NCBI GenBank assembly: GCA_008632985.1
Contig: QPGO01000023.1
Coordinates: 465,266-491,236 of the forward strand
DNA: 25,971 nucleotides
Source of the DNA: Psammoneis japonica
Taxonomy: Eukaryota
Direction: 5' to 3'
In this document: piece by piece, positions 1-25,050 of the stretch
Layout: the number at the start of each line of letters is the position of its first letter
How positions within the stretch are numbered: position 1 is the first letter of the stretch
Made by a program: the position numbers and the translations under genes
Notes under the pieces: model-generated
The model's database searches: none
Told to the model about the DNA's origin: nothing
Seen by the model: the letters and a program-made list of their open reading frames with translations, nothing else

Positions 1-4
1 CATC

Positions 5-1324
5 CCAGATGGTTGTGCCAAACAGCACTGGCATGCTTCAGCAATGTGCTTGTTGTCTGTGTTTGCCCACAAATGCAAAGTTGTCTTTGAATGGCTGGAG
101 CACCTGGACAGGGCAAATGCAAGGTTGATGAAATTAGAGCCTGCACCAAATTTGCCACATGTCAAGAAATGCAGTCTGCAACTGTTGCAGGAGCAAGCAG
201 CAACAAGGACAAAAAATCAGAGCTGATGCTTTGGTCATGCAGTGGAGCACAGTGTCTTCTTGCAGGAGTGTTTGAAAATTCTTTTGGGGAAGAGAGTGCT
301 TTTGGGGAAGTTGTTGGTGACAGAGGAAACATGCTTTGAGGGAATCCCACAAAAAGTTGAAAGAAGTCAAAGGGTGCATCAACTGCAAGACCCAAAGGAT
401 GTTTCTGGTTCTTGCGCCAAAGTCAAGTTGCAAGGATTGGCGCAACTGTGTCAGTGCTGTTGTGGCATTGGTGCCATGTGCCATTTTTGATTAGAGCCCT
501 TTTTCCCTGTTGGCTGGGTTGCCATGTGACACATTCCTTGTGCTTGTGATGGCTGCCCAGCTCAGCTCAGACAACCTTGGGCAAACAATGAGCACAACCA
601 AGCAGCCTTGACATGCATCTGGCAACCAATCTCACAAACCCTGGCCCATCTTTGAGGGACTGAATGATTGGCAAGTTTGTCAGGTTGTTCAAACAACTGA
701 GAGTGTTGCCAACAAGGCACAGTCAGTTCAAAAACTGGGATGGATTTTTGATTGAGGAAAAGGCAGAACAAGTTGTTGCAAACAGCTGTGCCGCCCTGTC
801 TGGTGAATCTGAAAAGGGCTTTTTTCTGCTGCAACTGGATGAACTGCTGCCCAAAGCACAAGAAAATGCTGTGTGGAATGAGTTTGATCCACCTGCAAAT
901 TTCAAGGCTGGTCAGTGGGTTTGCATGGGAACACATCCAACCAAGCCGTGCTCCAAGGGCCAGAGGATGGTGCTGCACTCCTGGAGATGCTGGGGAATGT
1001 CAAACAAGAGTTTTGCTCAAGCAAATTGCAGTTGCAAACATTTTGCTGAATGAACCACCAGGCTCTCTGCAAATTCCAAGGATGTGCAAAAGGAATGAGG
1101 CTTCACTTTTCAGCCCCCATCATTTGACTGAGGATGAGCATGAAGCCATTCTTGGTGCAATGCACCAGCATGAGTCACTGGATCATTTTGAGGATTGCTT
1201 GGATGATGATGATGAAGAGCACAGCAAGCATGAAGAGCCAGAGGAAGAGAGTGACAACAAAGCAGAGGAGGACAACAGTGGTGCGTGGGTGTGGGGGTGT
1301 TGGGGGGGGGAACAACAAAGCTGA
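5..1324 (+). pseudogene. Degenerate DDE-type DNA transposase (DGCxxQY...HGKxxxDG type; superfamily uncertain, possibly Sola-like), catalytic core to acidic C-terminus
   Basis: Nt 8-31 read DGCAKQHW (expected DGCxxQYR/K). After a frameshift, nt 91-150 read MAGAPGQGKCKVDEI (expected PGHGKxxVDG). A Cys cluster HIPCACDGC lies at ~529-555 and an acidic tail at ~1190-1275. Multiple frameshifts and TGA stops. Confidence 0.65.
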
Positions 1325-4278
1325 TGAGGAGGAACAACACGATGACTGGAAAATGAACAAGCACCATGATTGTCACTTTGCATCACCTGACCACCTGATC
1401 AGATGCACCACCCATGACACAAATGTGTGCTTCCAAAGTCACAGCTCACAAGCGTTCTGCTTGCCGACCCTCCGTGCTGTTTTGCCACATTTGGAATTTC
1501 AAACTGGCACACAGCGGCCAATTGTTTTGTTTGTCAGGGATTTGCAACACATTTCACCTCATGTTTGTCATTTCCAAGACACCAGTTCAGCCACCTGACA
1601 TCACTTGCTGGCATGAAAAATGGTGGTTGGAACCAAAGATCCACTCACAGCACAAGGCATTGCAGTGGTTGTTCACTGGATGGCACAAAATCATGCAGTC
1701 ATCATTGCAGGCTGTCACATCAATTTCACCACCTGCTTCCAAGGAAAAGGTTTGCTCCAAACTGCCTCAAAACTTCATTTTGGAGTTCCTTGGTGGGAAC
1801 TTCCCCCTTCAAACAGCTGCTCAGCATGCTCTTTGCAAGCAACACCTGGCTGTTGTCAGTTTCAACTCATTTGGCAGATGTTTCAAGGTGAGATGTGTGT
1901 TCATTCATTTCCAAGTTGCCGACAAAAGACAAAACACTGGCCAGGGACAAAAACACACAAGTGTCTTTGTTTCCTCTGCAAGAGGCAGCTTTGTGGGCAG
2001 GGGCCATTCTGTGGCAACTCAATGTTTGTTGTTGACAACACCTTTTCTTCTGGCAATGAGTGAAAACCATCCTCTGGCTTCCAATCTTTCAAGTTGTTCC
2101 AAACATCTAGAAACTGTGTCTTGGAGTTTCACTTGGCAGCCCAGTCAGGGCTGTGGCAGCATTTGTGGTTGCTCTGGACAGCACAACCAACAAAATGAGC
2201 ACCCTTCAGTTGCTTCTTGGGAAGAGCATCAATCTCCTTTACACTCAACCTCTTTGACTTTGCCAACCTGGGGCATGCTGCAAATGCAATGGACTTTGCT
2301 CTTGATCTCATCATCAGTGCCTTTTTGATCTGTCTTCTGGACATTGTTGTGTTTGTGCTTGGCACATCTGATGATGTTTTAACACCTTTTTGCTTGTGAT
2401 GGCCATTCCACTTGTTGGCTCATTTGACAAACCATTCTTCAAACAACATGCAGCCCACATCTCATTCATCGAAGCAACTGGACAAGTGAGGAACAAGTCC
2501 TGATGAGTCACCAGAGCTCAAACAATTTTTTTCACATTCAACATTGCTTGAGCATTGTTGTGCATTCACTCCATCTCCATTTCTCACTGGTGGTGCTGGT
2601 CTTTGCTCAAGCAAAAAATTGTGCTCTTGCTGCTCTTGGTCTCAGCTTTGATGTGCAAAGGCCACAAAGATTGCCATCATTTTGCCATCTCCATCAATGG
2701 CTTTCAACATCTCCTTTTGGCATTCATGAAAGGCATCTCCCATCTTTTTCTCCTTCTCTCCCTTCTCCCACCTCTCCCAAACTTTCTCCTTCTTTTTTCT
2801 TTTTGGTCTCCAAGTTGTGCATCTTCTTCCTTGGTGGCTCTCTCACAATCAGCCTCCAACTCAGCCTCTGACCCATCTGCACTTGCACCTTTGCTTCCAT
2901 CATGCAATGACAGCAATGCATCCTCTTGAAAAACAAATGCCGCTGCAGCTGGGGAGCCACCTTGTGCCAATTGGCAATGTGAGACCATGTGACAACTTGA
3001 TGAGCTCCTGCTTTTTGGCATCTTCTGAGGGGTGCTTTTGTGAGTGTGACCTGACGTTGGTGACAGTTGCCACCAAAACAGAGTGTCACTTTGGAGATGA
3101 TGACTTTCACAAGGTCTTGCACCCCAATCCAGAAAAATTGGTGTTGTCATTGTCAGCCAAGAGAACCCAAAACAAATGGTTGCACCACAAAGCTGCAAAA
3201 GCATCATGCAACATTTGACAATGCATGCATGCTGTGCAATCTGTGTCCACAAGAAGTTTGGGAATGTGAGGATCCTTGTGCACACATCAATGTCCAAATC
3301 AACAACATCCTTCCTGCAGCAACACTGTGGGTGTCAGACTTCATTAACTGGCTCCACTCAGAAACTGGAGAACAACCCAACTTCTTTTCCACCTTCTTCC
3401 TCTGAGCAAGTGACTTCTGATTGGATGGAATGATGGTTGGGTGTTTCATCCGAAATCCCTCTTGATCCCAAAATGGGATGCTTTGTGCATGTGCAAACTT
3501 GGTGCGCACTCCTTTCAATGCAAAAACATCAAATTGTTTTTTTGTGTGAAGGAACTTCACTCTCCAACAAACGTCAAACATGATCTGGCCACAAGGCAGC
3601 CAACGCAGTTCTTTCAATGTCTGGGCTTGACTTGTTGGGGGCATGCATTTCCAAACCACCAATGTTGACCTCACCACAGGTGCAAAGCATCACAATGCTG
3701 AAAAATTTCCTTGGCACTCTTGTCTTCTTTTCCTTCCCTGCCAACTGCTCATCATGTGTCAACAGTGTGAAAGGTGAGAACAGAGACTTGTTGAAGCTCA
3801 GCTGCCAGACTGTGGCTGCTGCACACAAGATTCCCACATGCCAAAATGCAGCTCCCACCAAACAGAGTGAAGAAGATCTTTCCAACTTTGATCTTGATTG
3901 TCTTAAATCCACTCTGCCATGGTGGTGATGGGATGACTGCAAAAGTCAAGAGCATTGACATGAGCAAGCACCGCTGGAATCTGCGAAATCACAGAGACAA
4001 AAAAGGCAGCAGACACCTCGGCCACATGCTTGTTGACTTCTTGTTCCCAGATGAGCTGATCTCCCATCTTGGGGCCAACCTAAAAAGTTGCAATCATGGC
4101 AGTGCAATTGCGATGCAAATTGGCATTTTCTTGGGCTCGACACACTCTGCTGAATTTTCACAGGAAGATGGAACAATCCCTCCAGGCATGCAAACGAACC
4201 AGTGTTGGCAACCTGCATGTTGCCCAGCTTGCTTTGCTTTTTTGTTTCTTTTTGGCTTGAATCTTGCACACATCCAGA

Positions 4279-4324
4279 GCAAGTTTGCTCAAGTTGGCAG
4301 CCGTTTGCTCAAAGTTGGCAGCCG
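4279..4324. repeat. Short tandem duplication GTTTGCTCAA(A)GTTGGCAGCC x2 near the right end of the TE block
   Basis: Two adjacent near-identical ~21-nt units seen directly; may be a subterminal repeat. Confidence 0.6.
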
Positions 4325-4706
4325 CACACATGGCGCGAGTGCTGAAGCAGAAAGTGGCAGTCAGACGCAATGAGAGGGGCCACCACCACAAAAGGTCTTT
4401 GGCTGATTTGCCATTTCATTGCTGGCAATGCCAATGGCTGCACCGTTCATTGGGGGGGCGAGGCATGGCCCGTCGGCGTCGCGACAACATGGTCGGTTGT
4501 TGCACACCGGCACATAAAAGAGTGTGCATTCTGTCTTCTGTTGACGCAGTCCCAAGCCGGGAGTGGACGCAGTCCTAAATGCGCATGCGCGAGCAACATC
4601 AAAATTCCAGACTTTTCTGGCATTTGCAGAACGGTGAAAGACATCTCACCTTGTCTCCTTTCATGGTCAGATGTCAGTGGAATGTGCATTGCATGTAAAT
4701 TTATAA

Positions 4707-5237
4707 ATGGATGACGAGGAAGAGCTTGTGCGTCAGGTGATTAACGAGAACCCTCCCGAGGATCGAGGAGTGCGTCCCGAGTGGGGGAGTCATCAGGGAT
4801 GGCATCGAGTTGAAGACACACACCGTAACAACCATGCCGAAGGAGAGCAAGGGAAAAAATTACCCAAAGACGAAGATAGAGATGGCGGTGGTGAAGCTAG
4901 TGGTGAGGTAATCACTGACTATAACATAAATGACGACGATCCTTTGGAACCGATGATTGAAGAGAAACCAGATGGGCAAGTCAATTGGCCTGTTGGCGGA
5001 GGGGCCGTTTTTAATTCTGTTGCCATGAAACAGGTGGATGATTTGGAGGGAAGGACATCACCGGGTGCTGTAACCCATGCGTTGCGAGGTGTAAAAGTAG
5101 GGAACGGGAATGTCGCTCAAGAAAAGGCGACAATCATGCGAAAACCTCTGACAATTGGGTTTGCAGCGGTAGTCTTCTTAGTTTACATTACACTTCAACG
5201 GCGGCGCACGATGAAAAGAACGAAAGATATGTTATGA
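4707..5237 (+). CDS. Hypothetical 176-aa acidic protein with one C-terminal transmembrane helix
   Basis: ATG-to-TGA ORF with normal TA/CG content. Hydrophobic LTIGFAAVVFLVYITL followed by basic QRRRTMKR. No family recognised; could be the 3' part of a longer gene. Confidence 0.55.
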   Translation: MDDEEELVRQVINENPPEDRGVRPEWGSHQGWHRVEDTHRNNHAEGEQGKKLPKDEDRDGGGEASGEVITDYNINDDDPLEPMIEEKPDGQVNWPVGGGAVFNSVAMKQVDDLEGRTSPGAVTHALRGVKVGNGNVAQEKATIMRKPLTIGFAAVVFLVYITLQRRRTMKRTKDML

Positions 5238-5568: not shown

Positions 5569-6504
5569 TTAAGACTGCTTCATTCGCCTCATAGCAGCAT
5601 CCGCTCTTTCACATCGCAACCGATCAATGTTCCTTTCATCTTTTCGTGTTTCTGCCAAAGGCTTCCGCTGTTGTACTAGCATCACGTTGTTGCTGCTACG
5701 ACTATCGTCGCCTTCATCGTTGCCGTATCCTCCGACTGGACCACCTCTGAGTTGTCCATCAAGTTCCTTCGCCGTCATTTCTCCTGCCATCATTTTGCCG
5801 CCATCATTGAATACTGAGTAGGCAGATGAAACACCACCCATCTCCGTGTGTTCTGACGCCCATTTATCCCGCGAACCGAGCGAAAACATGCCAACAATGA
5901 GGATCAGGATAAAGACCGGGGTTGTAAAGACAGGTAAAAATGACGTAGCATGCACTGGTCTTGATGCATGTTCCTCGCTCAATAAGTCATTGCTCGCAAC
6001 TGTAATGACATCAACGTAGATTGCGATGGCAAGCGCCCCTGCTGAAACGGCCAGATACGCGGTCTTTCTTCGCTTGCCGCTCTCCTCGGCGCTGCGAACC
6101 ATTGGCCAAGAGCTTTTCCACGACCACCACACAGCCACAGCTACAGGTGCTTCTGCCCACGAAAGAATTAGACAGTGGGTTCCAAAGTTGATGGCCTCTC
6201 GCTCCACCTCTCGACTCCATGCAAGATGCAGAAGATTGACTTGACACTGGTTATGGGACACTACCTACTCTCTACTCGATGCCCTTTCTGCGAATGAAAA
6301 CAAAGATTTCTGTGAGATTGCAACAAAGGCGCTTGTGAGATTACTTCGGAACAAACAGCACGTTGACGCATCTACTATGAAACTTACAGATGCCTTATAT
6401 ACTGCGGTAAACGCGTTCTCCTTCTTCTGAGAAGACGACGTGCCATGAGCCCTGTTGGCACTGTCATCGGATGGTGCTGCTGTTGATGATGTGTTGGATG
6501 TCAT
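5569..6504 (-). CDS. SAYSvFN-domain membrane protein (SAYSD1-like), probably with one intron
   Basis: Exact SAYSVFN motif after a hydrophobic segment, followed by G.MTAKELDGQLRGG. ORFs 6265-6504 and 5569-6261 share a frame and are separated by one TAG (6265-6267). A GTAAGT donor at 6387 (phase 0) and in-frame acceptors at 6265 or 6247 would remove it. Exon structure is inferred. Confidence 0.8.
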
Positions 6505-6529
6505 AATAGTGCTTTTTATCGCGTACCGG

Positions 6530-6763
6530 TACCAGTAAAAAACCGAATTGAGTCCTTATTTTTGCCATATGTTGAATGGCCATTTTTGCCCATCATTGGC
6601 CTAAAACTGACCATTTCTTCGCATTTCCTAGCTTTTCATCATCTCTTAACGAGTTCTTTGATGATAGTCGGTTGTGAAATGGGCTTGGGATTAGCTTAAT
6701 CTAGCTGCAAAAGTTGCACCTTTTTCGCGTAATGACTCAATTCGGCCCCCCTGTACATTTCTA
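6530..6763 (+). mobile_element. MITE-like element, copy 1 (end A at 6530, end B' at 6716-6763)
   Basis: End A TACCAGTAAAAAACCGAATTGAGTCCTTAT and end B TACAGGGGGGCCGAATTGAGTCATTACG share the core CCGAATTGAGTC.TTA in inverted orientation. Both ends and internal sequence recur in reverse downstream. Confidence 0.7.
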
Positions 6764-7083
6764 CGTGTCAAGTACCAGAAGAAATTCAACATATCTCCAA
6801 ATCAGCAAGCAGCACGGAGCAGTGAGGATATATGATGTACGTGTCTTGATAAAAAAATTACATGAGAATTGTTGAATCTCGTTTCCGCTTCAAAAAATAC
6901 AAACGACCATGTTCGACGGCAACGGGCAGCCGGAGAAAACTGAAACACCCAAATCCAAACACATGGTCAGAAGCAGCAGCAATTGAAGATTATCACAGCA
7001 ACAAAAACAGTTTGATTACTTGGTTTTTTCATCATTTTATCGATCGATTCAACATATGGGTCGGATAAGGACTCAGTTCAGTC

Positions 7084-7113
7084 ATAAGGACTCAATTCGG
7101 TTTTTTACTGGTA
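7084..7113 (-). repeat. Perfect 30-bp inverted copy of 6530-6559 (end A')
   Basis: ATAAGGACTCAATTCGGTTTTTTACTGGTA is the exact reverse complement of 6530-6559. It could close a ~580-bp TA-flanked element 6532-7111. Confidence 0.9.
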
Positions 7114-7225
7114 GGGCCTAGAAATGTACAGGGGGGCCGAATTGAGTCATTACGCGAAAAAGGTGCGCCTTTTCAAAGATGTCGTTCAGAGATGATGATA
7201 AGCCACTCTCTACTAACTGCCAGTA

Positions 7226-8815
7226 CAGTCTGCTCGCTCTAACATATACTTTTTAACATATACCCTCTCTATAACGTATACTAAAAATCCGGCCTGACCC
7301 CTCGGACGAAGGTCAGACTTCCCTGTTAACAGACAGACCGACAGACCGACAGACCATTTCGCGAATCCGTGATACGACTAGTTTGAGGCGATGAAACCAT
7401 TAAGACTACACTTACAACAACTGTAAACACCCTTGTTGACCATTATTTAACTCTAAGAAGTGGTCCTGGGCTTCTTTGTACCTAACAGGACCAAAGAATT
7501 GATGAAGGCAGTCATGAGTTTTTTCAAAAATTACAGTGGTGGCCGCGCGAACATGGCCAAAGCACATGGCGAAAGCCCTCTGCCAATCAGTGGAACGCCT
7601 CGTATGTAGAAAATATACTGACACCTACACGATCGCTTTTTTTTCGGTCGCTTTGCTTGTGCACACGAAATCTCAACAAAAATGTTTGCAATTCTGACAA
7701 GATTCAAGGTTGAAATCGATGCTTCTTTGCATTTTCTAAGGAGCTGTCATCTCACTTTTTCGAGTTTTCGGTTTAAACAAAACGCAAAACGTTCACAAAG
7801 AAGCAACAAAAAAGCAACAATTTACTCAACGATTTGGGGTGTTCGCACCTCAAGCAAAACAACATTTTCCACAAGTGTCACCAAAAAATTCCTCTGACGA
7901 GTCTCTTCCTTGTGCACACGATTTCACAATGGGAACACGTCGGATGAATGCGCACAGATGCGACATGGAGAGCTGAGCGGAAGTGCTGAGGAGCCATCAT
8001 GGCAAAATGCCGATTTTCCCTGAGTGTTTGCATCGAATCCATGGCAGAGTGCAGGGTTCGTGTGGTGCGTTTTACTGTCGAGAAAAGAGCACAAGGTGAA
8101 AATTATTTTTGGTGCACGCGCAGCACATGGGAACTGAGCAAAATGCAGTGTGTGGCCATGGCGGCTTTCCGAGTCGACACTGCATCCCTCCTGTTGATCC
8201 CGAGGAACATTTGCGTTCGCACATTGCCACAGATCATAAACATTGTAAAGCTGTGCATGCCGAAAACTGTCCCTTGGACTGTTTTTTCGGCTCTCGTTTG
8301 CCACATTTTGCAGTCGTTCAGGTGCCATCAAAGTTTGTCGCGTTTACAAGGAGAAGATTGGCGAGAATGGAAAAAATGCTTTTTCATCACACCACAATGT
8401 CACACAGGCAAGATTCCCACACACAAACGATGCAGCAGCATCCTGCTGCGTGTCTTTTCTGTTGCCTCGGCACCATTGCCTCTCTCGTGTTGTTTCGTGT
8501 TGCTCTGCATGAACATGCATGCTCATCCTCGTGCGTCATGCAACATCACAGACTGAAACAAAGTGTGGCCAAATTTTTAAAGTGCTGAGTCTGCCTGTGG
8601 TCAAGGCTTTCTACGCGCGTTTCGCCATGTGAAGCGTCGTGAGTCGTGAGGGAGAAGCGCAAGATTTTAAACTGCGCAAATCTTGGCACTGACTCCACTT
8701 GCGTGGCAAACACACGCACTTTTGCACCAGGATGGAATGACATGTGCCCTCTCTACAACATGCACTAAAAAACCGCATGTGCCCCCAGTGCACACATGTT
8801 AACGCGAGCAGACTG
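7226..8815. mobile_element. ~1.6-kb non-autonomous TIR DNA transposon, Tc1/mariner/pogo-like, with TA target-site duplication
   Basis: TA|CAGTCTGCTCGC..TAACAT at 7224 and ATGTTA..GCGAGCAGACTG|TA ending 8817. Subterminal 34-bp direct repeat (7257-7290 / 8741-8774). No recognisable transposase ORF. Confidence 0.8.
7329..7355 (+). repeat. ACAG/ACCG microsatellite inside the TIR element
   Basis: acagacagaccgacagaccgacagacc seen directly. Confidence 0.7.
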
Positions 8816-8858
8816 TAGTTAAAAAAATGGCCATTCAAGACAGACTCAATTCGGTTTT

Positions 8859-11800
8859 CATTGACCACTCAGTGGTTGGTGATTGCAGACTTTTTCGTGT
8901 CGGTCCGGCAGTCGGGCAGTCGGGCAGTCGGGGGGTCGGGCAGTCGGGGGGTCAGGCAGTCGGGTTGTCCGTCTGAATTTGAAAGTGCGCCCCTCGGATT
9001 TTGGAACGGGATGGGTTGTTCAGTGCAGATGAATTCTTCGGATTCGTAGAATGATCATTGAGGACATGAGAGGTCGTGGGGACATCCTAAAAAATCGATA
9101 AATTCCCTGCGATGGGCACGTGGCACGGTTTTTCAGGAGAGCTCGAAAGTGCTGTAAAATTGGGATTGCCGGCGTGGCATGTTCAAAAATGCACTCAGTT
9201 GCACACAAAGACAATTAATCATGAATTCTGCACGAAACAGTCACATTTGGGAAAACATGTCGAACAATGAGTGAGTTTGTGCGATGCGCCATTGTGGCGA
9301 TAAATTGGAAAAAAAAGAGTGTCCGTGCACCTCGCTGCAGCCCCAAAAATGGCATGAGACATCAAATGTGACGGTCATCCGCGTCACCGGTGCGGTGGCC
9401 ACGCCACTCAGCCACCACAACACTGGCCCCGGTGGCAGGGCCCTGTGCACGTAAAGACAATGCAGCATGCAACGGCACACACCCACCCACAAAAGCGAAA
9501 GACAAGTGGTCAATGCTCCCCGCAGGCCTGGTTCACTGCCGGCAGCACGTGCGCCTGAGAAGTTCACGTGCAACATCACTTGTCACCTGCCGGCAGCTGC
9601 TCTCTGCTCTCCACTCTAGCTGCCAGCAGAGAGAGCAGCTGCTGCTGCTCTCCAGAGAGCCAGCAGATTTGAGAGAGTGGCTGGCTGGAGGAGTTGTGTG
9701 GTGTGAGTGACAGACGGTGTGGTGGGGTGAAACGGCGTCATGCTGGCAGAGGGAGCTGGAGGGTTCGCAAGGATGGTGCAGCAAGTTGTGTGTGCAGTTT
9801 GGAGGAGCAGTGCAGGAGTTGGTCAGCAAGTGCTGTGGTCATGGCAAGGCGAAGCTTTGTGGGCCCCATTGTGCAGATCACAGAGCAGGAGGGGTGGCAC
9901 AGGTGGCATGCTGGTGGGTGATGCCGAAGTGGGTGGAGGTGGCGCTTGGCAGACCACGTGGTTGGAGGTGGGATCGAGTTGTTGTTTGAAGTGGGAGTGA
10001 CAAAGGGTGTGGGGGGACAAGGTCTTGAGAAGGAAGGTCTTGACCAAGGTGCAAAAATTGTCTGCTGGGTGTGGCCCAAAGAGCAGGGTTGCTAGAGGGC
10101 ATGGCAGCTTCATGGTTCTTGAGCTGCAAAAGGAGTGGGGGCTGGTTGGGTGATGAGAAAAGGGATGGTGATGACAGTGACAGAGTGGCACCCAACTCCA
10201 CCTGATGATGTGGGGGTGTGGGATTGGAGGAGCAGTGCGTGAGGTGGGAGGGGGGCTCACATTGGGTGGCGAGGTGTTGGGTGGCATGTTGCAAAGGGGA
10301 GAACCACAAGGTGTGATGGGCACAGGGTTGTTGGGGTCAAAGCTGCAGCAGACATTGGACACAAGCAGCAGGTGCAAGATGGGTGAGATGGCACAGGTGC
10401 AGCAGAGGGAACTCTTGGTTTTGGTGCCTTGAAAGCAGGATGACAGGTGGTCAAGGTTGGTGTGCAGGGTTGCAGCTTTTTGTGCTGGGGAAGGTTTGGG
10501 CAAAGGCCATGCTGCTGCTGACAGTCAACCAAAAAGGAAGTGATGGCCTGGGCATGTGGTGATCTCAAGAGAGGATGCCGGGTTGTCAGCTGGATTTTGG
10601 GAGGGTGTTTCTTGGCAAAGAGCAGTGGCACTGGCTGGTGGGAGATTGAGGATGGGAGAGGAACCGGGGGTGGATGTGAGAATGGCGGTGGAGGGCAGGC
10701 AAAGCACCCTTCTTGGCAACATTTGCCCCCCAGCATCAGGAAGTGCCATCACACTGGCAGCCATGGCAGGAAGTGCAGCTCCACTCAGAAAGGGCATGTC
10801 GAGTCTTCCGCTGGGGCTCCATGCTTTTCTCTTTGTCGATGGTGTTCCAAAAGTTGAAGACAGGCTTCCATCAGCCCCTTGTTGGCATCTCTGTGCTGTG
10901 TGCAGAAACTCTAACCTCTGGTTTGCTGAGTTCTCTTCCAGAGCCGGAGGTTGTTGGCAGTGTGGACAGGGTGCTGAGTCATCTGTGCTCCCCTGCATCC
11001 CCTCCACAGTTTCCAAACACACTTCTGCCATGCTCCCGCCTGCTCACCTGTTCTGTCCTTTTGACTCCAACATTCATGATGATGCTTCCCATGCTTCCTG
11101 CACCCACTGTCACCAGTGCCGTTCTTCCTGATGCTGGCGCTGATGAGTTTGAGCCATTGGCAGCTCAGTCCTCTGTTGTGTTTGTTGATCACACCACCAT
11201 TGAAGCAGTTGTCCACAAGGACAACTGCACTTTCCCAAACAGCGCCATTTGTGCCCAACCAAAGCTCAGTGTGCAAGTGCTGCAAAGTGTGAAGCACTTT
11301 GCCTTTCTGGTGCTGGCTTTTGAGTGCAGTTTGATCTTGGCAACCCAACTCTGCACCCTTCAAGTGTCATGTGTCATGTGCTCTTCTAAAGAATCCACAA
11401 GAGCACCTTGATCCTGTGCCAGACATTCTTGGCATTTGTTGCAGATGGTGTGGTGGCGCTGCAAGTTCTGCCTCAGCTTGGCAGCACTGAGCTTTGTCAT
11501 GCTTCTCCCAAAGTTCCCACCAAGATTGCCACATGTGTGTGATCTGATCTGAGTTGCCCAAACCAGAAGAGGCTGGTTTTCTTTGCGGCACTTTTCTGGC
11601 AGGCTGGACTCACAAAGATGAGACTCTTGAAAGGTGTTCCACAGGGTCAAACAGCAGCCATTGAAAACTTGGCACCAGCCAACGTCCAACTGCTGGGCTC
11701 TCCACAGAGGTCAGTGCACGGGACTGAGATCCAATTCACAGACCATCTCACCATGAGCACTTCACCACACTCTGCTGTGCCACATGGCCCCTGCATGCTC

Positions 11801-14800
11801 AAGTCACCACCACACCATGCACCCTCTTGCTTTTTCCCAGAACTGTGTGCTGATTTCCTCTGCGGCATTTTCAGCTTTTTTTTTTTACATGCACAATTTT
11901 TCTCACATGATTCACAACAGCACACCCTCTCCCCAATGCCAAAAAGCAAGAGTGAGCACTGTTGTCATTCACGCACATTTGTGTGCTGTTGCCAGTCAAC
12001 AACACCAGCCACATGGCAGTGAATGACTTCACCCCATTGGCCGATGAGGTCGACCCCGATCCCTCACATTTGTCTTTGATGACAATGTTGATTTTGATGG
12101 CATGAAATGTTTTGCCAATGGCTTTGGCATGGAGTTGTTTGGGCCTGAGCTCAAAGCACAACTGTGCGTGCCTGTCAAAAAGCAGTTTGTGGAGCAAAAG
12201 AGCTGGGCACCTTCTCCTGAATTCCTTGCACTTTGCTTCCTTTGCCACAAGCTGAAGCTGCACCACATTCCACATGTTGTGTGAAGTCATCCACATCAAC
12301 AACATTGTGAGGAAACAAATTGGTCATCCAGACACGTGGCCCCACATCGCCACACGTGGTTGGTCAATGAAGTGATCCCATTGACTGAAGGGCAAATTTG
12401 TTCTTTGATGCAGAAAGTCAAAGGATGCTCTGGAGTGCTCAGCCTCTGCAACACATGGTTAGATGAAAAAAGATCAGCAGCATTGTCCTCACCTCCACCA
12501 CACAGTCAGCCAAGGCCATGACTGAGTTTGCACACCCGATCATTGCTGGTGATGACCTCAAGGATCCACCAACAGGCAAGGCTTGTTTCCATTTTTTGAA
12601 GTGCACTGGTCTCCTGTCCTTGATGGATGACCAAGCATGACCTTCATGGCTCTTGCTTTGTTGCTGAAACAGTCATGCATCATGTTGTGCACAAGAAAAC
12701 TGAAACAAGTCAAAGGCTCTCACAGGTTTTTTGGAAGATGACTGCCCAGAAGGAGTGGCGCACATTTGTCAACAGCTTTCTTGTGATTTGTGACTTGAGT
12801 GATGTTGTGTCACAGGCAGATGCTGTCAAAGTTTGCATCAGAGACAAATGACATGACATCAAGGACCAAGTGTCAAAGGACAGTGATGTGACAGCCCATT
12901 GCAAGGTGCACCAGACAAAAATCAATTCAATGCTGGAGCAAGAATTTGGGAAGCATTGTCCAAAGAAGCAGCCTTGCACTTGTCCCAGGTGCAGCAAGCA
13001 GCCAACAATGCTTCTTTGCAGAGTGCATGACCAAAGGGCAGATCATTTGGAAGATGATCACAAACAACAAGAGCACACATCAAAGACCACCATGAAATTA
13101 GAAGGCAGCAGAAAGATGGTGCCTGCCAATGACTGTGAGAGCACATTTGTTTTCCTGTGCTGTCCTGTGTCCCCTTGACTCACAATTTTTTTGCTTCAGC
13201 CAATCTTCTGTTTGACAATGTGCAAGAGCCTTCTTTGACTGTCCCTCACAAGACAGCCAAGACCTCATCTTGTTCCAACCTGGCACCTCCCAGGGCATCT
13301 GGCAATGTGTCCTTGGCAGGAGAGGCAAACTGCTGCACCCTCACCCTGGACATTCCCACTTTGACAGAAAAGGTCATCCCAGCCAAGCTGTCTTTGTCCT
13401 TGTTGAATGGCGCCAGTTCATTCCAGCCCTGACATTTCTGGGAAGCCCCCTGTTGTTGGTGCCTTGCCTCAAGACCCCAATGACATGTCTTGGTTGGACA
13501 AGTTGATGCTCAGCCAATGCTGAGTGAAGTTGGTGATGCAGTCAGAAGACAATGGCCATTTGAGAGAACTGAATGATGTGTGCACAAGAAGGTGGCCAGG
13601 TGCACACTGGAAAAAGATGACCACAATGACTGACTCCCTGGGTGAAGTCAACAAGGGTGAGGGACCAAGTGAACAGAGTGCACGTTTCATGAGAGCAAGT
13701 GATGAGTTGTGACAAAGGCCATGAGGAAACAAGAGATGTTTGAGTCACAATCCTCACCTCTCTCATGAACGATGTTTTGGATTTGTGCCAGATGGTGGAG
13801 GACACAAAGAGAAACATGTGTGGCAGGGAATTTTGCTGCAATGAGCTCTCATCAGGTCTGCTTGGTGATTGGCTTGCAATGTGCAAGACTCGTGAAATGA
13901 TGAAGAGGTTGTGCAACAGCAAAGTGAGGAACTGTTGCACAATGAAGCACACAAACACATGTCAGCCACCACACTGGTGTTTTCATTGCATGGAGCTGGG
14001 CTTGAAAAGGAAGCAGACATTGCCAGGCATGGATGGAACCCATGCAGAACCAAAGAACACTGGCAGATTGTTGGCGGCCAGGCGGCCTGGAGACAAGGCA
14101 AGTTGTGTCATTGCTTCCATGAGGAGCACGGGAAGGACAGCAAGTTCTTCATCAAGGACAAGTGTGTTGCAAGTTCAAAGGGAAACAAATTAAGTTTGGT
14201 TCTTCATTGATCTGACATCATGAGATTGAAAGAGACATCATCAGTCAATTTGCCAATGCATGGCATGGACAAAAGTGGGTGTGTGCTGGCCCACTTGTGA
14301 AGCACACAAAGTTGGAGACATGTGGTCATTCTGGACTCACAGTGGACAAAAATGTGGTGTCACTTGTGTTGCGGGACAACTGGCATCTTGCTTTGATCAT
14401 GGTCTCATCAAAGCAGAGCCTTTGTTGACACTGACCTGCACTGAAATGAATTTTTTCATGTCAACTCCATGAGTGACAAATGGGTGGATCGTGCAGTGGA
14501 AGGATGCAAGTTCAGCAAGTTGATTTAAAACAGAGAGGGCCAGGATTGAAAGTGCGCTGCAGTTTGTGGATGAGGTCAGAGGCATTGCGGATGCACCCAA
14601 GGACATGGCAGATTTCTCAGATGGGGAGCAGCATGCTGGCACATGTCTTTGTCATGCTCTGTTTGAGTCAGTGGCAAGGTGTGGCAGGAGCTGTCCACAG
14701 CACATGGAAAGGAAAACTTTTGCAGGTTGAATTGTTGTGTGTGCTGCATTTTGACAACTTTGACATTGGCCCGTGCAGAACAAATTTCAATGTGTGAGAT

Positions 14801-16050
14801 GGATGGCAGGCAGCAATCGTTGTGTTTGAATTGAAGATTTCATTGCCAAAATGTCAGCGCAGCGGTTGAAAAATGAGAATCATTGGTGAGAGTGTTGAGA
14901 TGTCAGCATTTAAAAATGCTTTGAATTGAGACAACAGCAGGCTGCAAAGGGATGCGCAACACCCTTTGCAAGACACAAGAAAGCCAACAGATCACAACCT
15001 GCAAGGCCATGCCAAAGACATTGCAGACAAGGAAAGAGGAAGGGAACATCTGCTTGTGATCTAAGTCCAAGGGTGGCAGTGGTGGCAGAGTGGATGGGAA
15101 CAAGTGGAGGGTGCCACACACTCAAGAGAAAAGTGGAAGAGGTGGCAAAAGGAAAGAGCTGTTCCCAAAATCAAGGTTCCTGACTGGGGCAGACATGTCA
15201 AGCATGAAAGGTGTCACGGCCAACATGGAAGAACATGGCCAGTGGCAAATTCAGCAAGTGACGCTGGGCCGGGACATGGGAAGACTGGGCAAAGAAGTGT
15301 GTTCCAAATGCAGTCAATTCAAAAAGAAACCCCATCTCACAGTCAACAATGAAGAGTGCAACAAGTGGCAAGTGCTGCACAAAACTCTGCAGAATGAAAT
15401 TGAGCAGTGTGCTGCCAACACATCTGCCATCCTGTTGACAGAAAAGAGCCCCCAAGCACCGGTGCACACAAACCTGACAAAACGGCAGGAATCATGGGGG
15501 GGGGGAGGGGGCAAAGGATCAGAGTGATTCAACAAGCAATGTGATGATGCAAAGAAAGATGGAGCAAGTGATGCAAGGGTGCAGTTTGACACAGAGCACA
15601 GCAGCAACAACAAGAAGGAGAAAAGTGATGAGAAGGGGGCAAGAGTGTAAGTGCCAAGAAAAAACTGGTGCAGAAGAAGCCAAAAAAAGCAATGCTTGAG
15701 CTGTCCAGCAGCAACAACAAGGGCAACATGGAAAACAAAAAAGGACAAGACCACGAAGAAGAGGAAAGCTCCTCAAATGATGACGATGGGGAAGACAAGA
15801 ACAAAGCTGCAACCCAGCACAGGAACAGCGCCTCTCAGCTGCAATGCATCCACTTGTGGACTGTTGACTGGTGGCAAATTGGCAAATCACTGACATTCAT
15901 TTCTGACATGCACTCCATCATTGACATTAAATGTGCACAAAGTGAAATGAAACTCTCTGCAAATGAAATGATTTTGGCTCAAACATTTTGCAGGGGTGGA
16001 GGGTGAGAATCCTCACAGGGAAGATGAGTGGTTGTTTCACAGTGATTCAA
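8859..16050. mobile_element. Large hypermutated repeat-derived block, unclassified (may be several nested elements)
   Basis: Near-total TpA loss, with CpG loss from ~9800 onward. Protein-like but broken + strand frames at ~12050-15830. Boundaries approximate. Confidence 0.65.
8907..8964 (+). repeat. 8-bp tandem repeat GGCAGTCG / GGGGGTCG, ~7 units
   Basis: Seen directly; preceded by the palindrome ACCACT-C-AGTGGT (8864-8876). Confidence 0.85.
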
Positions 16051-16761
16051 TTTTTCTCACAAGGAGGGGTGGGAATTCTCGTGGCATAAAAAAGGTTGTC
16101 TGTCACACAGTTAGAACTGCTTCACCATGTGCGCAACCAGCTGTCTGTCACAGTTTACTTTTTTAAACAATGCAGTGGTTAAAAGATTGCCACAAGAAAG
16201 GCAGACTTGATCACCACAATGCGCACTCTTATGAGCAATGTAGATGGTCATGGCAAGGGCACCATTCCAGATGTTGGCGAGCTTTGTCCAGCTTTTGATC
16301 ACTGCCGCATCCTTCACGTCGACGCCCTTCTTGGTCCTTAACTTTTTCGCTTTGCCACCCATCCTCATTCGCTGTATGTTTCAGGGGAATGTAACCTAGC
16401 GCTGTGGGAAAGATTGCCTCCATGTGCCCATGCCAGTCAGTCAAAGACATCTCTACAAAATCCCCGGACTCACCGAGAACGATAAGTTGATGTTTAAGAA
16501 GTACAAGGATTTGACTGCAAACCAAGCTCAGTATATCGTACATTCAATGAGCGTATCAACTCTCGTATTTCCACCTAAAGATCGTCCCAGTAATCACACA
16601 GCACTTTTTATGGTATAGGTCGGTTGTGCATTAGAGACGTAGAGCACTGTAGAATTGACGAGCAGTGTCTAAAGTATTCATCTATCAAAATTGTGCGGTA
16701 CGATCTTGAGAGGTTTGTTGCCATAGTTCGACGTGCCAATTTGGGACTGAGACCAGTCATT

Positions 16762-19749
16762 CTATGGCGGATTATTGACCCCGGCACGGAAGGCAAACCA
16801 AGACACTTCAAATCCTCCTTGAGGAAATGCTACTCGAAGCTTGTAGGAGCCTGCATTAAGCCAGACATTGGCAAAAATGGTTTGCCAGCCTCCGTTTGTG
16901 TGTGGAACAGACATCCACAAGACGGAGTTGCCATTGGTTTGGACATTGATTTGACCCGAGTATGTGGGAGAGGTCACACGGGCCGCAAAAGTATACTGAC
17001 CGTTGAACGCAACATTTATGTCAAATTCAACGAAGTCTCCATTGGAAAGAGATGATATCATTTGCCCACCGCCGGCATCTGTCGAAGCTTTGATCTCCAC
17101 TCCCTGTTGACTACAGTGCTGTTCTGCTACTAAGTCGCCAGGCACAGAGAAAGTACTGCAGCCCCCTGTTGGTGGGATATTGGTAGGGGTTGTTGTCGGT
17201 GAGTAAGTCGGCGGTGCTGTTGTTGGCGCAGTCGTTGGCGCTTTTGTCGGTGTCGAAGATGGCGAAGATGTAGGGTTCCTACTGGGAGACTTAGACGGGA
17301 CCTTGGTTGGTGGAACATTTGTTGTCACAACAGAGGAAGGTGTCATCGAAGCACTGCTTTGTGTAGGAGACTGGCTTGTTGGACCGGATGTCGATGGTGC
17401 AAAGGTGGGAGATGAAGTTACGACGGACCCGCTTGATGGAGACGGCGTTGGTGGAGAAGAAGCGGTGATCGGTGGCGGAAGTGGGTTGTTGGTCCCACTT
17501 CCGAAGGACATATAGTTGAGCTTGAAACCACCCTGAGGGAAGGCTACACGAAGACGGTGAACACCTGCATCTAGGTAAACATTGGCATGTATGGTCCGCC
17601 AGGCTCCTTGGGTGTGAGGGACCGACAGCCACAGTTTCGAGATGTTATCGACTTGCAAGTTGATCTGGCCAGAATACACCGGTGAGAATACACGAGCCGA
17701 AAATGTGTACTGGTTGCTTGATGAAACATCAATGTTGTATTCAGAATAGTCGGCATTGTCCAGTTGGAAGATGTTATGTCCGCCCCCTACGTCGGATGCA
17801 GACTCCAGTTCGACGCCTTGATGATCACAGTACTGCTCGGCTTGGATGTAGCCAGGCACAGTGAAAGCAGAAGCAGTAGTGCAGTCTACCCCCGCACCTA
17901 CCGGTGATGCAGAGGGGGTGGCGGTATATTCCGTCGGGGTCCTCGAAGGGGGTGTAGTTGGTTGAACCGGGGCCTTAGATGGGGCCAATGTGACAACTTG
18001 ACTTTTCGTAGGACTCGAAGTTGCTTGGATGGGCGAAGCCGTCGGAGGGGGCGTTGATATAATCGGTGCTTTCGAAGGCGCTGTAGTAGGAATGCTTGTT
18101 GGCGAGGAATCGGGCTCGGCTGTGAAGGATACCCAATTGACATTGAAGCCACCACCAGGGAAAGAAAGCTCGAGGTTGTGGCCGCCAGAGGTGAGGTAGA
18201 AGGATGATGACAAAGTCTGCCAGGATTGCCAACCGCCAGTGTCGGGAATAGAAAAAGACGCAAGCACGTTCTCGTCGACTTTCACATCCATCAGACCGGT
18301 CGACCAGTCGGAGGCGATACGGGCTTCAAAGATGTATTGACCGCTATTGGCGACATTGATGCGGTATTTTGTATAATCTCCAGTGTCGAGGTACCCAACG
18401 TTCTGGCCTCCTCCTGTATCAGACGTTGATTCCAGCTGTACACCTTGGTGTTCGCAATAGTCTTCGGCCTGAATGAGCCCAGGGATGACAAAGCCTGCTG
18501 ACTCGCTGCAAGTAATGGAGGGCTTGATGGCCTGGTAAAAGCCGTTATGCCATTCAATACTCTCATGACCATTCTTGATATTGATCTGAGCGAAGCTTAT
18601 CATTTCATCGTACAAATGTGTTGGGGGTGTTCCACCATTGTTGATGTAGCTCTTGACTTGATTGTAGGTATCGTTCGGTGGAATAGTCCACAGGCACCTA
18701 TCATGGCTCATCTTCTTGAAGCTCCAAGGGTAGTACCCCTGCAAAGTCTGTTTGGCCCAGTCGGTGATTGCTTGAAGATTCGACTCGTCTGTCTCGCCAT
18801 ATTCACCAATGAAGAGAGGAATGTTGAGGTTGTTCGTAATTTGCTCGCGCCCATACGTACCAGATGCTGGGCCGTAGTGATGGATCTGGTAGACGAGCTT
18901 GTCGTCCCACTGACTTGTGATGCCGGTACTTGACTGGACCTGCGAATCCAACCAATCGATCTTGGTTAGGTCCGAGCCCCACCACGAGCCCTCAGCGACG
19001 ATGATGTGGTTGTTGTCAACCTCTCGAATGGCGTCGCGCATGACAAGATAAGAGGGTAGGAGCTCGTACTCACGTCCATCTTGGGGAACCGGCTCGTTGA
19101 TCAGGTCGTATCCCCATATCACCGGCTCGTTGGCATACCTGGTAGCAATATGCTTCCAAATTGAGGCCGCCAGAGCAATGTTGTCCTGGCCGTCCCAAAA
19201 CTTGACAGTACCTCTGGGTTGGCTGGCATTCGAATCGACATTGTCACTGTGATCACCAGGGTTCTGATACCCCGGTGCAGCATGCATGTCGAGAAGTATG
19301 TGCATGCCATGAGTCCTACACCAGCCGATGAGGCGATCGAAGAATTCGAATCCATCGTCGATGATCTGGGCAGTGTCCTGATCGTAGAATAGCTTATAGC
19401 TGAATGGAACACGCACCGAGTTGAAGCCAAGGCTCTTGAGATCATAAATGACCGTCTCGTCCACGTAGTTCAGCCTCCATTGGTATTCAAATTCGGCGGC
19501 CTTGTCTGAGCCACCCAAAGCATCTGCCAGCTCATTGAAGAACTGTGTGTGCGTGCGGTAATTGAAGTCGCCCATCATTAGGTAACCCTCCCAAAGCAGC
19601 CAGTTTCCCAAATTGATGCCGCTGAAGAAGTGTTCCTGTCCGTTCTCGTCGAGAATCTTGGTCCCTGATGTGCTGACAAAGGCGGCACCAACGTTGGCCG
19701 CCGAACCAACCAACAGCAGCAACGGCAAGCAGAGAAGTAGCGTTGTCAT
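16762..19749 (-). CDS. Secreted glycoside hydrolase family 5 (endoglucanase/beta-glucanase-like) with three CBM6 modules separated by Pro/Thr/Ser-rich linkers
   Basis: 995-aa uninterrupted ORF with signal peptide MTTLLLCLPLLLLVGSAA. GH5 motifs GINLGNW, GFNSVRVPF, LDMHAAPG, acid/base YDLINEP and nucleophile FIGEYG. Three PGxIQAExY..QGV...D.GGG...W repeats at ~18490-18120, ~17865-17500 and ~17150-16770. Confidence 0.92.
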   Translation of the reverse strand: MTTLLLCLPLLLLVGSAANVGAAFVSTSGTKILDENGQEHFFSGINLGNWLLWEGYLMMGDFNYRTHTQFFNELADALGGSDKAAEFEYQWRLNYVDETVIYDLKSLGFNSVRVPFSYKLFYDQDTAQIIDDGFEFFDRLIGWCRTHGMHILLDMHAAPGYQNPGDHSDNVDSNASQPRGTVKFWDGQDNIALAASIWKHIATRYANEPVIWGYDLINEPVPQDGREYELLPSYLVMRDAIREVDNNHIIVAEGSWWGSDLTKIDWLDSQVQSSTGITSQWDDKLVYQIHHYGPASGTYGREQITNNLNIPLFIGEYGETDESNLQAITDWAKQTLQGYYPWSFKKMSHDRCLWTIPPNDTYNQVKSYINNGGTPPTHLYDEMISFAQINIKNGHESIEWHNGFYQAIKPSITCSESAGFVIPGLIQAEDYCEHQGVQLESTSDTGGGQNVGYLDTGDYTKYRINVANSGQYIFEARIASDWSTGLMDVKVDENVLASFSIPDTGGWQSWQTLSSSFYLTSGGHNLELSFPGGGFNVNWVSFTAEPDSSPTSIPTTAPSKAPIISTPPPTASPIQATSSPTKSQVVTLAPSKAPVQPTTPPSRTPTEYTATPSASPVGAGVDCTTASAFTVPGYIQAEQYCDHQGVELESASDVGGGHNIFQLDNADYSEYNIDVSSSNQYTFSARVFSPVYSGQINLQVDNISKLWLSVPHTQGAWRTIHANVYLDAGVHRLRVAFPQGGFKLNYMSFGSGTNNPLPPPITASSPPTPSPSSGSVVTSSPTFAPSTSGPTSQSPTQSSASMTPSSVVTTNVPPTKVPSKSPSRNPTSSPSSTPTKAPTTAPTTAPPTYSPTTTPTNIPPTGGCSTFSVPGDLVAEQHCSQQGVEIKASTDAGGGQMISSLSNGDFVEFDINVAFNGQYTFAARVTSPTYSGQINVQTNGNSVLWMSVPHTNGGWQTIFANVWLNAGSYKLRVAFPQGGFEVSWFAFRAGVNNPP

Positions 19750-20157
19750 GGCGAACGTTTCTAGCTAATGACAACGCCAGAAGTATTCCAGTTGGATCCA
19801 AGCTCTTGCAACCTCTGTGCTACGGAACTGGGGTGTTTAAGCATAAAAGTGACGAGAACATAACACATAACAGCGGTCATTCCAGCCAACTCTGCCCATC
19901 CGCATCGTCATCGGCTTCCCGCCATTTTTTGATTTTTTATCCGGGTTCTTTTCATTGAAATCAGCATTGCTAGCGTCTGATCGTCGCTCGTCGACCTTAC
20001 GCGCGGGTCGTCCATCACGCGAGCGATGACACGCGAGAAAACCGCATCCAACATTCCATAAAACATCACTGACAATGAGCGATGAGCGGTGATTGACCCA
20101 ACATCTCCGAGTCTAGACTGGCTGATATCACTGACAGCAACAGGGACTGCTTCTACT

Positions 20158-22059: not shown

Positions 22060-23049
22060 TTATCGAATGCTAAAATAATGATGAAGCATATCCTGTGTTG
22101 TCCCCTCGCTCGTGTGCGAAGTATTCAAGCATAGCTGAAACACATGCTTGGATGCTTGAACTGCCAATTCGGTAACACTCGCAAGGACACCAAACGCAAC
22201 CGACCCGACATGGTGCTTGTGGATCCCACAGACCCCTTGTTGCGGATCCACAGCCATGCTTACTAGACACGAAGCGCATGCCTCCTCTTCTAGCGTCGCA
22301 TCTAAAAGCAATACAGTTTGTGGGCACTTGAGTACATGCACCGTGACAATGATTGGACACTGTTCTACACCTGGCGGTGGCAAAGCGTTGACCATATCCC
22401 CGTCTACCGCCAAATCATATGTTGCAGAGGATGGCTTTGTGCCATCTGTCTTTGTTTTGGAAGAAATAGGCGTAATGGCGGGTAGTCGAGTTTGTCGCAG
22501 GGCCGCACGCATCACCATGGCGCACACATCAGCGACATTTCCCTCACAAGCAAGAATCAACAGGTCAATGCTCAGCCTCCACACGTATTGATTTGGAACG
22601 ACACATAATCCACTTTTATCTACAGCATGTGGTAGCCAGAGACGCCTTATTAACGACTGAAGTTCCATATCAGCCTGTCTTTGTCGCCGACGAGTCGATG
22701 ACGCTGCTTGACTGGGAGGAATAGCTCGATCCACGTGAAGTTCCAGCACACCCTCGTTGGGAGCGTTGGGGGCAGGATGGACCAAGTCAGCCTTGACTGA
22801 ACACAACACATGAGTATTTCCTCCCGGTAACAAGATCCGAGCCGATCCATGTGAGAGAGCTAACGGTCCTTCTCCTGAGGAATCCAACGAGGAGTGCGTG
22901 CTCAGGGTGTAGCATCTGTAGTCGATACAAGCACGTCCATCTAAACGAGAGTCTTCACGACATCCCTCCATCACATAACGTCTTTCTGATGAGGATATGG
23001 TATTCTCGGGATTATACCTCGTTGGTGTCGCTGTATTTGTAGCAGCCAT
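22060..23049 (-). CDS. RRP42: Exosome complex RNase PH-like subunit, RRP42/EXOSC7-like
   Basis: 329-aa ORF with RLDGRxxxDYR, SHGSARI, VLCSVKA, WRLSIDLLILACEGNVAD, ALRQTRLP and LLDATLEEE. RRP42 is preferred over RRP43/RRP45 on N-terminal pattern and length. Confidence 0.8.
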   Translation of the reverse strand: MAATNTATPTRYNPENTISSSERRYVMEGCREDSRLDGRACIDYRCYTLSTHSSLDSSGEGPLALSHGSARILLPGGNTHVLCSVKADLVHPAPNAPNEGVLELHVDRAIPPSQAASSTRRRQRQADMELQSLIRRLWLPHAVDKSGLCVVPNQYVWRLSIDLLILACEGNVADVCAMVMRAALRQTRLPAITPISSKTKTDGTKPSSATYDLAVDGDMVNALPPPGVEQCPIIVTVHVLKCPQTVLLLDATLEEEACASCLVSMAVDPQQGVCGIHKHHVGSVAFGVLASVTELAVQASKHVFQLCLNTSHTSEGTTQDMLHHYFSIR

Positions 23050-23199
23050 GGCTTAAAATATAAATAATGCTATGGCGGTACCTATGTTCAATGTTCATTC
23101 CAGCCGCCGCCGTCCGCCATAGCCTTCGCCATTTTTATTTTGCCGTGCCCCCGTTTTGCACGGAATAGGACAGACGGACAGTCGGCTCCATTCACTGCC

Positions 23200-23345
23200 A
23201 CACTATCTCTGCTCTCTCTGCTGGCTAGAGTAGGGCTAGAGAGCAGCTGCCAGCTAGCAGCCACTCTCTCCACTGCTGGAGAGTGCAGTAGAGAGAGAGA
23301 GAGAGCAGCAGCAGCAGCTGCAGCAGCAGAGCTCCAAGAGCTGAG
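23200..23345. repeat. Low-complexity CTAG/AGAG/CAG tract at the edge of the TE block
   Basis: (AG)n and (CAG)n runs; 23209-23251 resembles revcomp of 9592-9638. Confidence 0.6.
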
Positions 23346-24800: not shown

Positions 24801-25009
24801 AGAACATGACAGATGAGCACAAGACCTTCACTCCTGTTTCACTGTGCTTTGCGTGCACGATCTGTCATGCTGAATCCCTCTCCACTTCCCAGCCAAGCAA
24901 ACAACTTTCAGTGCACACACCCCATGAAACACTCAGACATTTCATTGCTCCTGTTTTGGCTCCCAGAAGACTCAGATGAAAAAGTTGCAGATGAAGAGTG
25001 ATGCTGCAG

Positions 25010-25050
25010 NNNNNNNNNNNNNNNNNNNNNNNNNNNNNNNNNNNNNNNNN
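25010..25050. other. Assembly gap (41 N)
   Basis: Run of N; true adjacency of the flanking elements is unverified. Confidence 1.

Follow-up and report, generated by a model that had tools for sequence, protein, structure and literature searches.

A multicopy transposon with Tc1/mariner-like ends probably straddles the edge of a diatom DNA domain in which TpA was replaced by TpG and CpA

To our knowledge, the described in-place and editing-type mutators of mobile DNA, namely repeat-induced point mutation (RIP), APOBEC editing and the decay of methylated CpG, all remove C:G pairs. RIP, which occurs in ascomycete fungi, introduces transitions in place in repeat-rich DNA. The resulting domains are sharply bounded and skewed in their dinucleotides, and adjoining genes and single-copy DNA are hit as well. 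RIP changes C:G to T:A, mainly CpA to TpA, and enriches TA. APOBEC (C-to-U on cDNA) and ADAR (A-to-I on double-stranded RNA) likewise produce clustered transitions in mobile elements, those of ADAR being A-to-G; both act on replication intermediates, mark whole copies and usually affect one strand. In dinoflagellates and kinetoplastids, a modified thymine (5-hydroxymethyluracil or base J) is enriched on repeats. Here, a 25,971-nt stretch of contig QPGO01000023.1 from the diatom Psammoneis japonica (assembly GCA_008632985.1, positions 465,266 to 491,236 of the forward strand; hereafter the window) was analyzed. It carries a 1,590-bp element at 7226-8815, which probably straddles the edge of a domain where TpA was converted in place to TpG/CpA by transitions (rough probability 0.68). 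On this reading the left 390 bp of the element would lie outside the domain and have kept their TA, and the right 1,200 bp would lie inside it and have lost every R-TA-Y (R, purine; Y, pyrimidine). The element is composed as follows.

7224-7225: left TA target-site duplication, directly outside the terminus
7226-7249, plus strand: left terminal inverted repeat, CAGTCTGCTCGC, 2 nt, then TAACATATAC; TA state
7226-7616, plus strand: left part of the element; ordinary to high TA, CpG normal
7256-7291, plus strand: left 36-nt subterminal direct repeat; TA state, seven TA in its 34-nt core
7617-8815, plus strand: right part of the element; TA-depleted, no R-TA-Y
8740-8775, plus strand: right 36-nt subterminal direct repeat; TG/CA state
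8792-8815, minus strand: right terminal inverted repeat, reverse complement CAGTCTGCTCGC, 2 nt, then TAACATGTGT; TG state
8816-8817: right TA target-site duplication, directly outside the terminus
8816-9650: TA-only halo beyond the element; 10 TA, no R-TA-Y against 11.3 expected, CpG normal

The step in TA content lies within the element. Its left part holds 28 TA, 11 of them R-TA-Y, and the ratio of observed to expected TA is 0.95 in 7226-7630 as compared with 0.60 in ordinary sequence. The right part holds 15 TA, none of which is R-TA-Y (16.2 expected, P=9e-8), and its CpG content is normal (60 versus 64.4 expected). Since the R-TA-Y-free state crosses the right end into the unrelated DNA of 8816-9650, the boundary ignores the limits of the element. 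From there it runs on into a 6-kb core that is nearly devoid of TA and CG, one of three in the window.

1-4250: core A; almost no TA, few CG
9650-15950: core block B; observed/expected 0.03 for TA, 0.16 for CG and about 1.8 for CA and TG, other dinucleotides ordinary
23350-25971: core C; almost no TA, few CG

Together, the three cores (13,173 bp) contain 22 TA and 111 CG, as compared with 40.8 TA and 53.7 CG per kb in the ordinary parts of the window. Observed/expected ratios in the cores are 0.01-0.03 for TA, 0.10-0.17 for CG and about 1.8 for CA and TG; those of the other 12 dinucleotides range from 0.8 to 1.35. In nearly all 250-bp bins of affected DNA, TG is about as frequent as CA, and there are no long one-strand tracts. 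R-TA-Y is absent from 1-5227, 7617-16374 and 23080-25971 and elsewhere occurs at about 13.6 per kb. Loss of TA extends 0.3-2 kb past the cores into flanks, here termed halos, whereas CpG is depleted only in the cores and in the halo at 15950-16374 (10 versus 22.8 expected, P=0.002); in the other three of the four halos (4300-5227, 7617-9650 and 23080-23350) CpG is normal. R-TA-Y-free zones thus border all three TA/CG-free cores and the TA step in the element faces the block, which bears out the positional dependence claimed in a preliminary description of this DNA.

The sequence context of the remaining TA was compared between zones. Surviving TA in the cores comprise 18 YTAR, four single half-sites (RTAR or YTAY) and no RTAY, where approximately 70, 288 and 178, respectively, were predicted. 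The corresponding numbers in 7631-9650 are 10, 14 and 0, and in the ordinary parts of the window 57, 207 and 134. TA susceptibility follows the order RTAY >> RTAR/YTAY >> YTAR. In the halo at 4300-5227, RTAY is missing (0 versus 12.6 expected) and returns abruptly at 5228, whereas single half-sites (17 versus 20.3 expected) and CpG are normal, which identifies RTAY as the primary target; a model in which RTAY behaves as two independent half-sites was dropped given this pattern. The products are skewed as well. RCAR plus YTGY rise from 38.4 per kb in ordinary sequence to 58.9 in halos and 66.2 in cores, and the increase of RTGR plus YCAY is smaller (38.2, 42.6 and 51.3). This bias indicates that the T of R-T-A becomes C, equivalent to A to G in T-A-Y on the other strand. 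Five of the six single half-site cases for which a TA partner could be seen follow this product rule.

The preliminary description had drawn attention to two 34-mers within the subterminal repeats, 7257-7290 and 8741-8774. The letters quoted for them are correct: 27 of 34 positions are identical, and the seven differences (positions 4, 6, 16, 20, 22, 23 and 32; A/G, A/G, T/C, G/A, A/G, T/C and T/A) are five TA to TG/CA changes, one CG to CA change and one transversion. A repeat search of the window returned the 36-nt copies as a direct repeat with 81% identity, located 30 and 40 nt inside the respective element ends. The identity of 27 in 34 was reached in none of 300 mononucleotide shuffles of the terminal 120-nt stretches (maximum 22). 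The agreement noted between the terminal repeats, TAACATATAC on the left and TAACATGTGT in the reverse complement of the right, is also correct. It was slightly generous to call nearly every site changed, as five of the seven TA of the left copy are altered and two, CTAC and CTAA, are retained. Reading the letters of the terminal repeat and the 36-mer together, all six RTAY are changed and the sole RTAR has become CA as predicted, and the sole YTAY and both YTAR are unchanged; applied to the letters of the left end, the context rule found for this zone yields those of the right end. Taken alone, five TA to TG/CA changes among seven differences correspond to P between about 0.0008 and 0.04 according to the share of transitions that is assumed, and the strength of the pair comes from its surroundings rather than from the two repeats by themselves. 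The view that only the end facing the block was mutated holds for the side, but not for the extent, because about 1,200 of 1,590 bp are affected and the boundary lies at approximately 7617-7630. The two copies most likely represent a true before/after pair. The observation was confirmed and its interpretation supported in part, for direction and positional dependence; the near-identical starting state that it assumes for the two ends is putative.

The element is a non-autonomous, multicopy, Tc1/mariner-like DNA transposon. It has both the TA target-site duplication and the terminal inverted repeats of Tc1/mariner elements, and it is these ends that suggest its assignment to the superfamily. 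The terminal arms are perfect over 12 nt and, with the flanking TA counted, 91% complementary over 22 nt. The window contains CAGTCTGCTCGC twice, at 7226-7237 (plus) and 8804-8815 (minus); with at most one mismatch, 0.14 matches are expected and two were obtained in 2 of 100 shuffles. Among 12 stop-to-stop frames of at least 70 aa overlapping 7226-8815, no Pfam family, and hence no DD(E/D) transposase, was matched at E<=1, and the element is called non-autonomous because no transposase frame was found. With Tc1/mariner-type miniature or non-autonomous elements (Stowaway-like), it shares the TA duplication and short terminal inverted repeats starting with CAGT; in both, subterminal repeats are present, copies are numerous and short deletion derivatives occur. 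It is unlike Stowaway-like elements in that it lacks a transposase frame and its 36-nt subterminal repeat is direct, not inverted.

Further copies were found in public run X1, where 1,114 contig pieces with a likeness of at least 80% align to 6500-9600. The flanks differ between pieces on the element, and two deletion joints, 7444>8703 and 7559>8632, represent short derivatives linking the left and right ends; for these reasons the family is regarded as dispersed and multicopy. One other copy in this run also begins aligning at 7225. Contig depth reaches about 1000 at 7228-7539, which is the most abundant module of the family. The run contains 0.45 of the sampled words of the element. Runs X2 and X3 yielded 11 and 0 aligned pieces, none of them on the ends of the element, and a protein-level search for copies through the open frame 8614-8868 (minus strand, across the right end) gave no candidate. 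A metagenome match to the terminal motif at a single locus (L001) showed no resemblance beyond the pattern and was set aside as a chance match. A self-comparison of the window in a purine/pyrimidine-collapsed alphabet, aimed at mutated relatives of the element and repeats shared between cores, yielded only three trivial matches of at least 45 nt. Two 8-nt tandem arrays are present, GACAGACC x 3 at 7330-7356 in the left part and GTCGGGCA x 7.8 at 8902-8964 just to the right of the element, and a 13-nt inverted match connects 7292-7304 with 8945-8957.

The direction of change was read from the best 40 of 321 positions at which X1 contigs differ from the window, each with at least 75% support; none of the 40 falls in 7226-7413 or 8716-8948. 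At 10 of them (7872, 8533, 8559, 8565, 8570, 8677, 8696, 9117, 9230 and 9421) the window has TG/CA and the other copies have TA, and all 10 lie in the depleted zone. Within the element this applies to seven of eight TA-type positions, all seven in the right part, in line with the direction proposed earlier. CpG differences in the element are balanced among the same 40 positions, with four at which the window has TG/CA and others CG and three of the opposite kind, so that CpG change in the element does not appear elevated. At 8192-8193 the window reads TG and another copy CA, compatible with an ancestral TA or CG that changed differently in each of the two. Judged from these alignments, the other copies support a change from TA to TG/CA in the window copy.

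Comparison with the systems introduced above places the locus apart from each of them. As in RIP, transitions would have arisen in place in repeat-rich DNA, the skewed domains are sharply bounded, and flanking single-copy DNA and a gene are affected. The host, however, is a diatom-like stramenopile, TA is erased rather than enriched and the change is from A:T to G:C; the RIP hallmark of raised TpA and lowered CpA/TpG is absent from affected DNA, in which observed/expected ratios are 0.01-0.22 for TA and 1.4-1.9 for CA/TG. An initial guess of a RIP-like CA/TG to TA change was dropped after the dinucleotide profile and the contexts in other copies had been obtained. Neither the abundant short repeats at 6530-7225 nor the most abundant part of the element is affected, whereas the single-copy gene of the halo at 4300-5227 is. 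Since these abundant repeats were left untouched, copy number alone is probably not the trigger, and the changes would track a chromatin-like domain rather than sequence homology.

Diatom transposons are CpG-methylated by DNMT5, as stated in PMC9998398. Decay of methylated CpG matches the cores, with their low CpG ratios and excess of TG/CA, but not the right part of the element, where CpG is retained although RTAY is gone. Because CpG is normal where RTAY has been lost, the TA process appears to be separate from CpG decay and to reach further, and the CpG loss of the cores would most simply be ordinary methyl-cytosine decay. Among the CG left in the cores, R-CG-Y is relatively enriched (37 of 111, as compared with 101 of 502 in ordinary sequence); this preference is opposite to the flank preference of TA loss and suggests two different processes. 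APOBEC and ADAR also differ from what is seen here, as TG and CA are locally mixed, a cut-and-paste element is affected in part only and flanking unique DNA is changed. One-strand A-to-G clusters in a retroelement copy, the feature of ADAR-type hyperediting, were not found in affected DNA, and the neighbour preference of ADAR does not match T-A-Y.

On the proposed reading, the process would act on DNA in place, on either strand and with a specificity of four nucleotides. The base pair beside the purine flank would change, R-T-A giving R-C-A and, on the other strand, T-A-Y giving T-G-Y. This would amount to an enzyme-driven base conversion aimed at repeat-rich, probably heterochromatic, domains and separable from CpG loss. 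On balance, we slightly favor an undescribed DNA-level hypermutation in diatoms, or in this one at the least, akin to a reverse RIP, that would convert TpA to TpG/CpA with R-TA-Y specificity in repeat-rich domains and their 0.3-2 kb flanks. Searches of the full-text literature, with supplements outside their scope, turned up no account of a hypermutation from TA to TG/CA, nor of repeat domains free of TA, be it in diatoms or in other organisms. Removal of TpA with creation of G:C would need a chemistry different from that of the known systems, either adenine deamination on DNA or a mutagenic modification of thymine. Adenine deamination in 5'-TAY-3' (A to hypoxanthine, read as G) is tentatively the first choice. 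Oxidation of thymine in 5'-RTA-3' to a base of the 5-hydroxymethyl- or 5-formyl-uracil type that pairs with G is a more doubtful second candidate. We know of no thymine hydroxylation mark in diatoms and of no link between such marks and an evolutionary erasure of TA. PMC11071213 states that 5-formyluracil pairs with G, leading to T-to-C changes, and that 5-hydroxymethyluracil is repeat-enriched in a dinoflagellate; it also reports that no sequence motif was found for the latter.

If this is true, a major algal group would have a form of genome defence, or of epigenetic footprint, that is new. The process would erase stop codons, Tyr codons and the TA and TTAA target sites of cut-and-paste transposons, neighbouring genes would be hit and the evolution of adjacent genes may be accelerated. 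Such domains would defeat homology-based repeat annotation, as no protein domain is left, and, with TGA as the sole remaining stop, yield long false reading frames; in the cores, many such frames are indeed present on both strands. For base-editing research, a naturally occurring DNA enzyme specific for T-A-Y would be of interest. The element would provide a rare natural control, being one insertion of one age that is half inside and half outside the domain, and owing to this straddling position direction, RTAY specificity and boundary sharpness can be read without an outgroup.

Several observations weigh against this reading. The evidence comes from one 26-kb window, in which no enzyme for the process was identified. 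Pfam searches with 125 reading frames gave chance-level matches only; what had been termed a large block of transposable elements contains no recognisable transposon protein, no Rfam match and no tRNA, and for this reason we do not call the cores transposons. A library-wide phmmer search with the longest core frame (309 aa) returned two tandem-repeat proteins with scores summed over nine stretches, which were judged spurious. In the gene at 4707-5237, two of 29 residue changes specific to the window relative to 10 homologues fit RTAY to RTGY, which says little about the direction of change. Among the 40 best-supported positions there is one reverse case, 7414 in the left part, where the window has TA and 82% of the depth (15 contigs) has TG. 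At the right-end sites no TA variant reaches 75% of contig depth, and a right end in the TG/CA state could be widespread among family members. A paralogous contig, 10% diverged and with a depth of 34.4, probably shares the window letters at 8533, 8565 and 8570 according to depth arithmetic, so that some changes may predate the insertion and have come with a source copy that was mutated before. It is not clear that X1 covers the locus of the window itself, many positions showing 100% other letters, and the window letters of the depleted zone are provisional to that extent.

Three alternatives were considered in this light. If the master copy of the family already had a TG/CA right end and a TA-poor interior, the 36-nt repeats would have diverged long ago, the window copy would have inherited the asymmetry and its place beside the block would be coincidental. 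The missing dominant TA variant at 8716-8815 and the paralogous contig speak for such a family trait, as does a contig that joins 8760 back to 7284 and in which a right-end-like repeat stands before a left-type interior elsewhere. We nevertheless regard it as unlikely, because other copies have TA at the seven positions in 7872-8696, and at four of these (8559, 8677, 8696 and 8533, the last covered by a single contig) every contig does. Nor would a family trait account for an RTAY-free state that passes the end of the element through 8816-9650 into the core, for like halos at the other three core edges, one of which covers a conserved single-copy gene, or for changed and kept TA classes at the ends that match the zone-wide rule.

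An artefact, in which modified TA and CG were read wrongly as TG/CA in a long-read consensus and short-read polishing failed in repeats, appears less probable still. It would explain why the own locus is unclear in X1, a word share of 0.45 being expected if the words of miscalled sites are missing, and it can be reasoned that strand-specific miscalls at a symmetric site would emerge from a graph-based consensus as TG/CA but never as TA/CG. However, the positions with 100% other letters include transversions (7706, 7711 and 7712) and sites at which the window has CG and the others TG/CA (8428 and 8531), which argues that the X1 contigs are paralogues and not the own locus. One-strand miscalls should spare about half of the single half-sites, whereas nearly all are lost in the cores (4 left, about 288 expected) with one preferred product. 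Both states are moreover seen within X1 at 9117, 9230 and 9421, where the window letter accounts for 11-22% of depth, and probably also at 8533, 8565 and 8570; the genes of the window have long intact frames. Finally, TG/CA could be ancestral, and a RIP-like C-to-T change (CpA/TpG to TpA) could have made the left end TA-rich. The TA-rich left terminal 100 bp (14 TA per 100 bp) and the TG of most other copies at 7414 are compatible with this, a majority of ACATGTGC-type left ends among the family copies would fit it, and RIP-related DNMT4 enzymes of unknown function occur in diatoms according to PMC9998398. It is highly improbable given that 10 of the 11 TA-type positions among the 40 point the opposite way, that none of the 40 shows a dominant G or C at left-end TA sites despite a depth of about 500-1000, and that TA and CA/TG are ordinary in the short elements at 6530-7225; it also leaves unexplained kilobases with 0-3 TA and the complete disappearance of RTAY from halos that span unrelated DNA and a gene.

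The remaining features of the window are the following.

4707-5237, plus strand: conserved gene of 176 aa, intact and single-copy, inside the halo 4300-5227
6530-7225: nest of short inverted-repeat elements hosting the insertion; GACTCAATTCGG motif, TA normal
about 8858-9532: very abundant dispersed repeat; contig depth about 5,600-15,000 versus about 20-60 for single contigs
16762-19764: GH5+CBM6 gene, long and intron-free
20086-22002: gene of a UVB-sensitivity family protein, long and intron-free
22060-23052: RNase PH gene, long and intron-free

The nearest relatives of the last three genes are diatom proteins with at most 63% identity. The nest at 6530-7225, with ordinary TA and CA/TG though 0.4 kb from the depleted zone, has perfect 30-nt arms at 6530-6559 and 7084-7113 and 55-nt arms at 6709-6763 and 7119-7173. 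Its GACTCAATTCGG short-element family is abundant in X1 and was found with other flanks in X2, and a further piece lies at 8818-8858. This piece was considered with its relatives in the window as a second before/after pair and rejected, being too short and broken by indels and by the repeat at 8858-9532. The latter carries an 11-nt inverted repeat, CATTGACCACT, at 8860 and 9516 and has variable flanks in X1 from 8855/8858 and 9532/9533. Where its window copy deviates from the family majority, the window mostly has TG/CA and the others CG or TA. Coverage was examined over 6500-9600, and high copy number beside core B was detected for this repeat only. In core C, a 45-nt stretch at 25008-25052 is a perfect purine/pyrimidine palindrome (91% at the nucleotide level). 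The gene at 4707-5237 has 10 homologues that align over the full length with 48-57% identity, and its protein comprises an acidic N-terminal region and a C-terminal hydrophobic stretch followed by a conserved basic tail.

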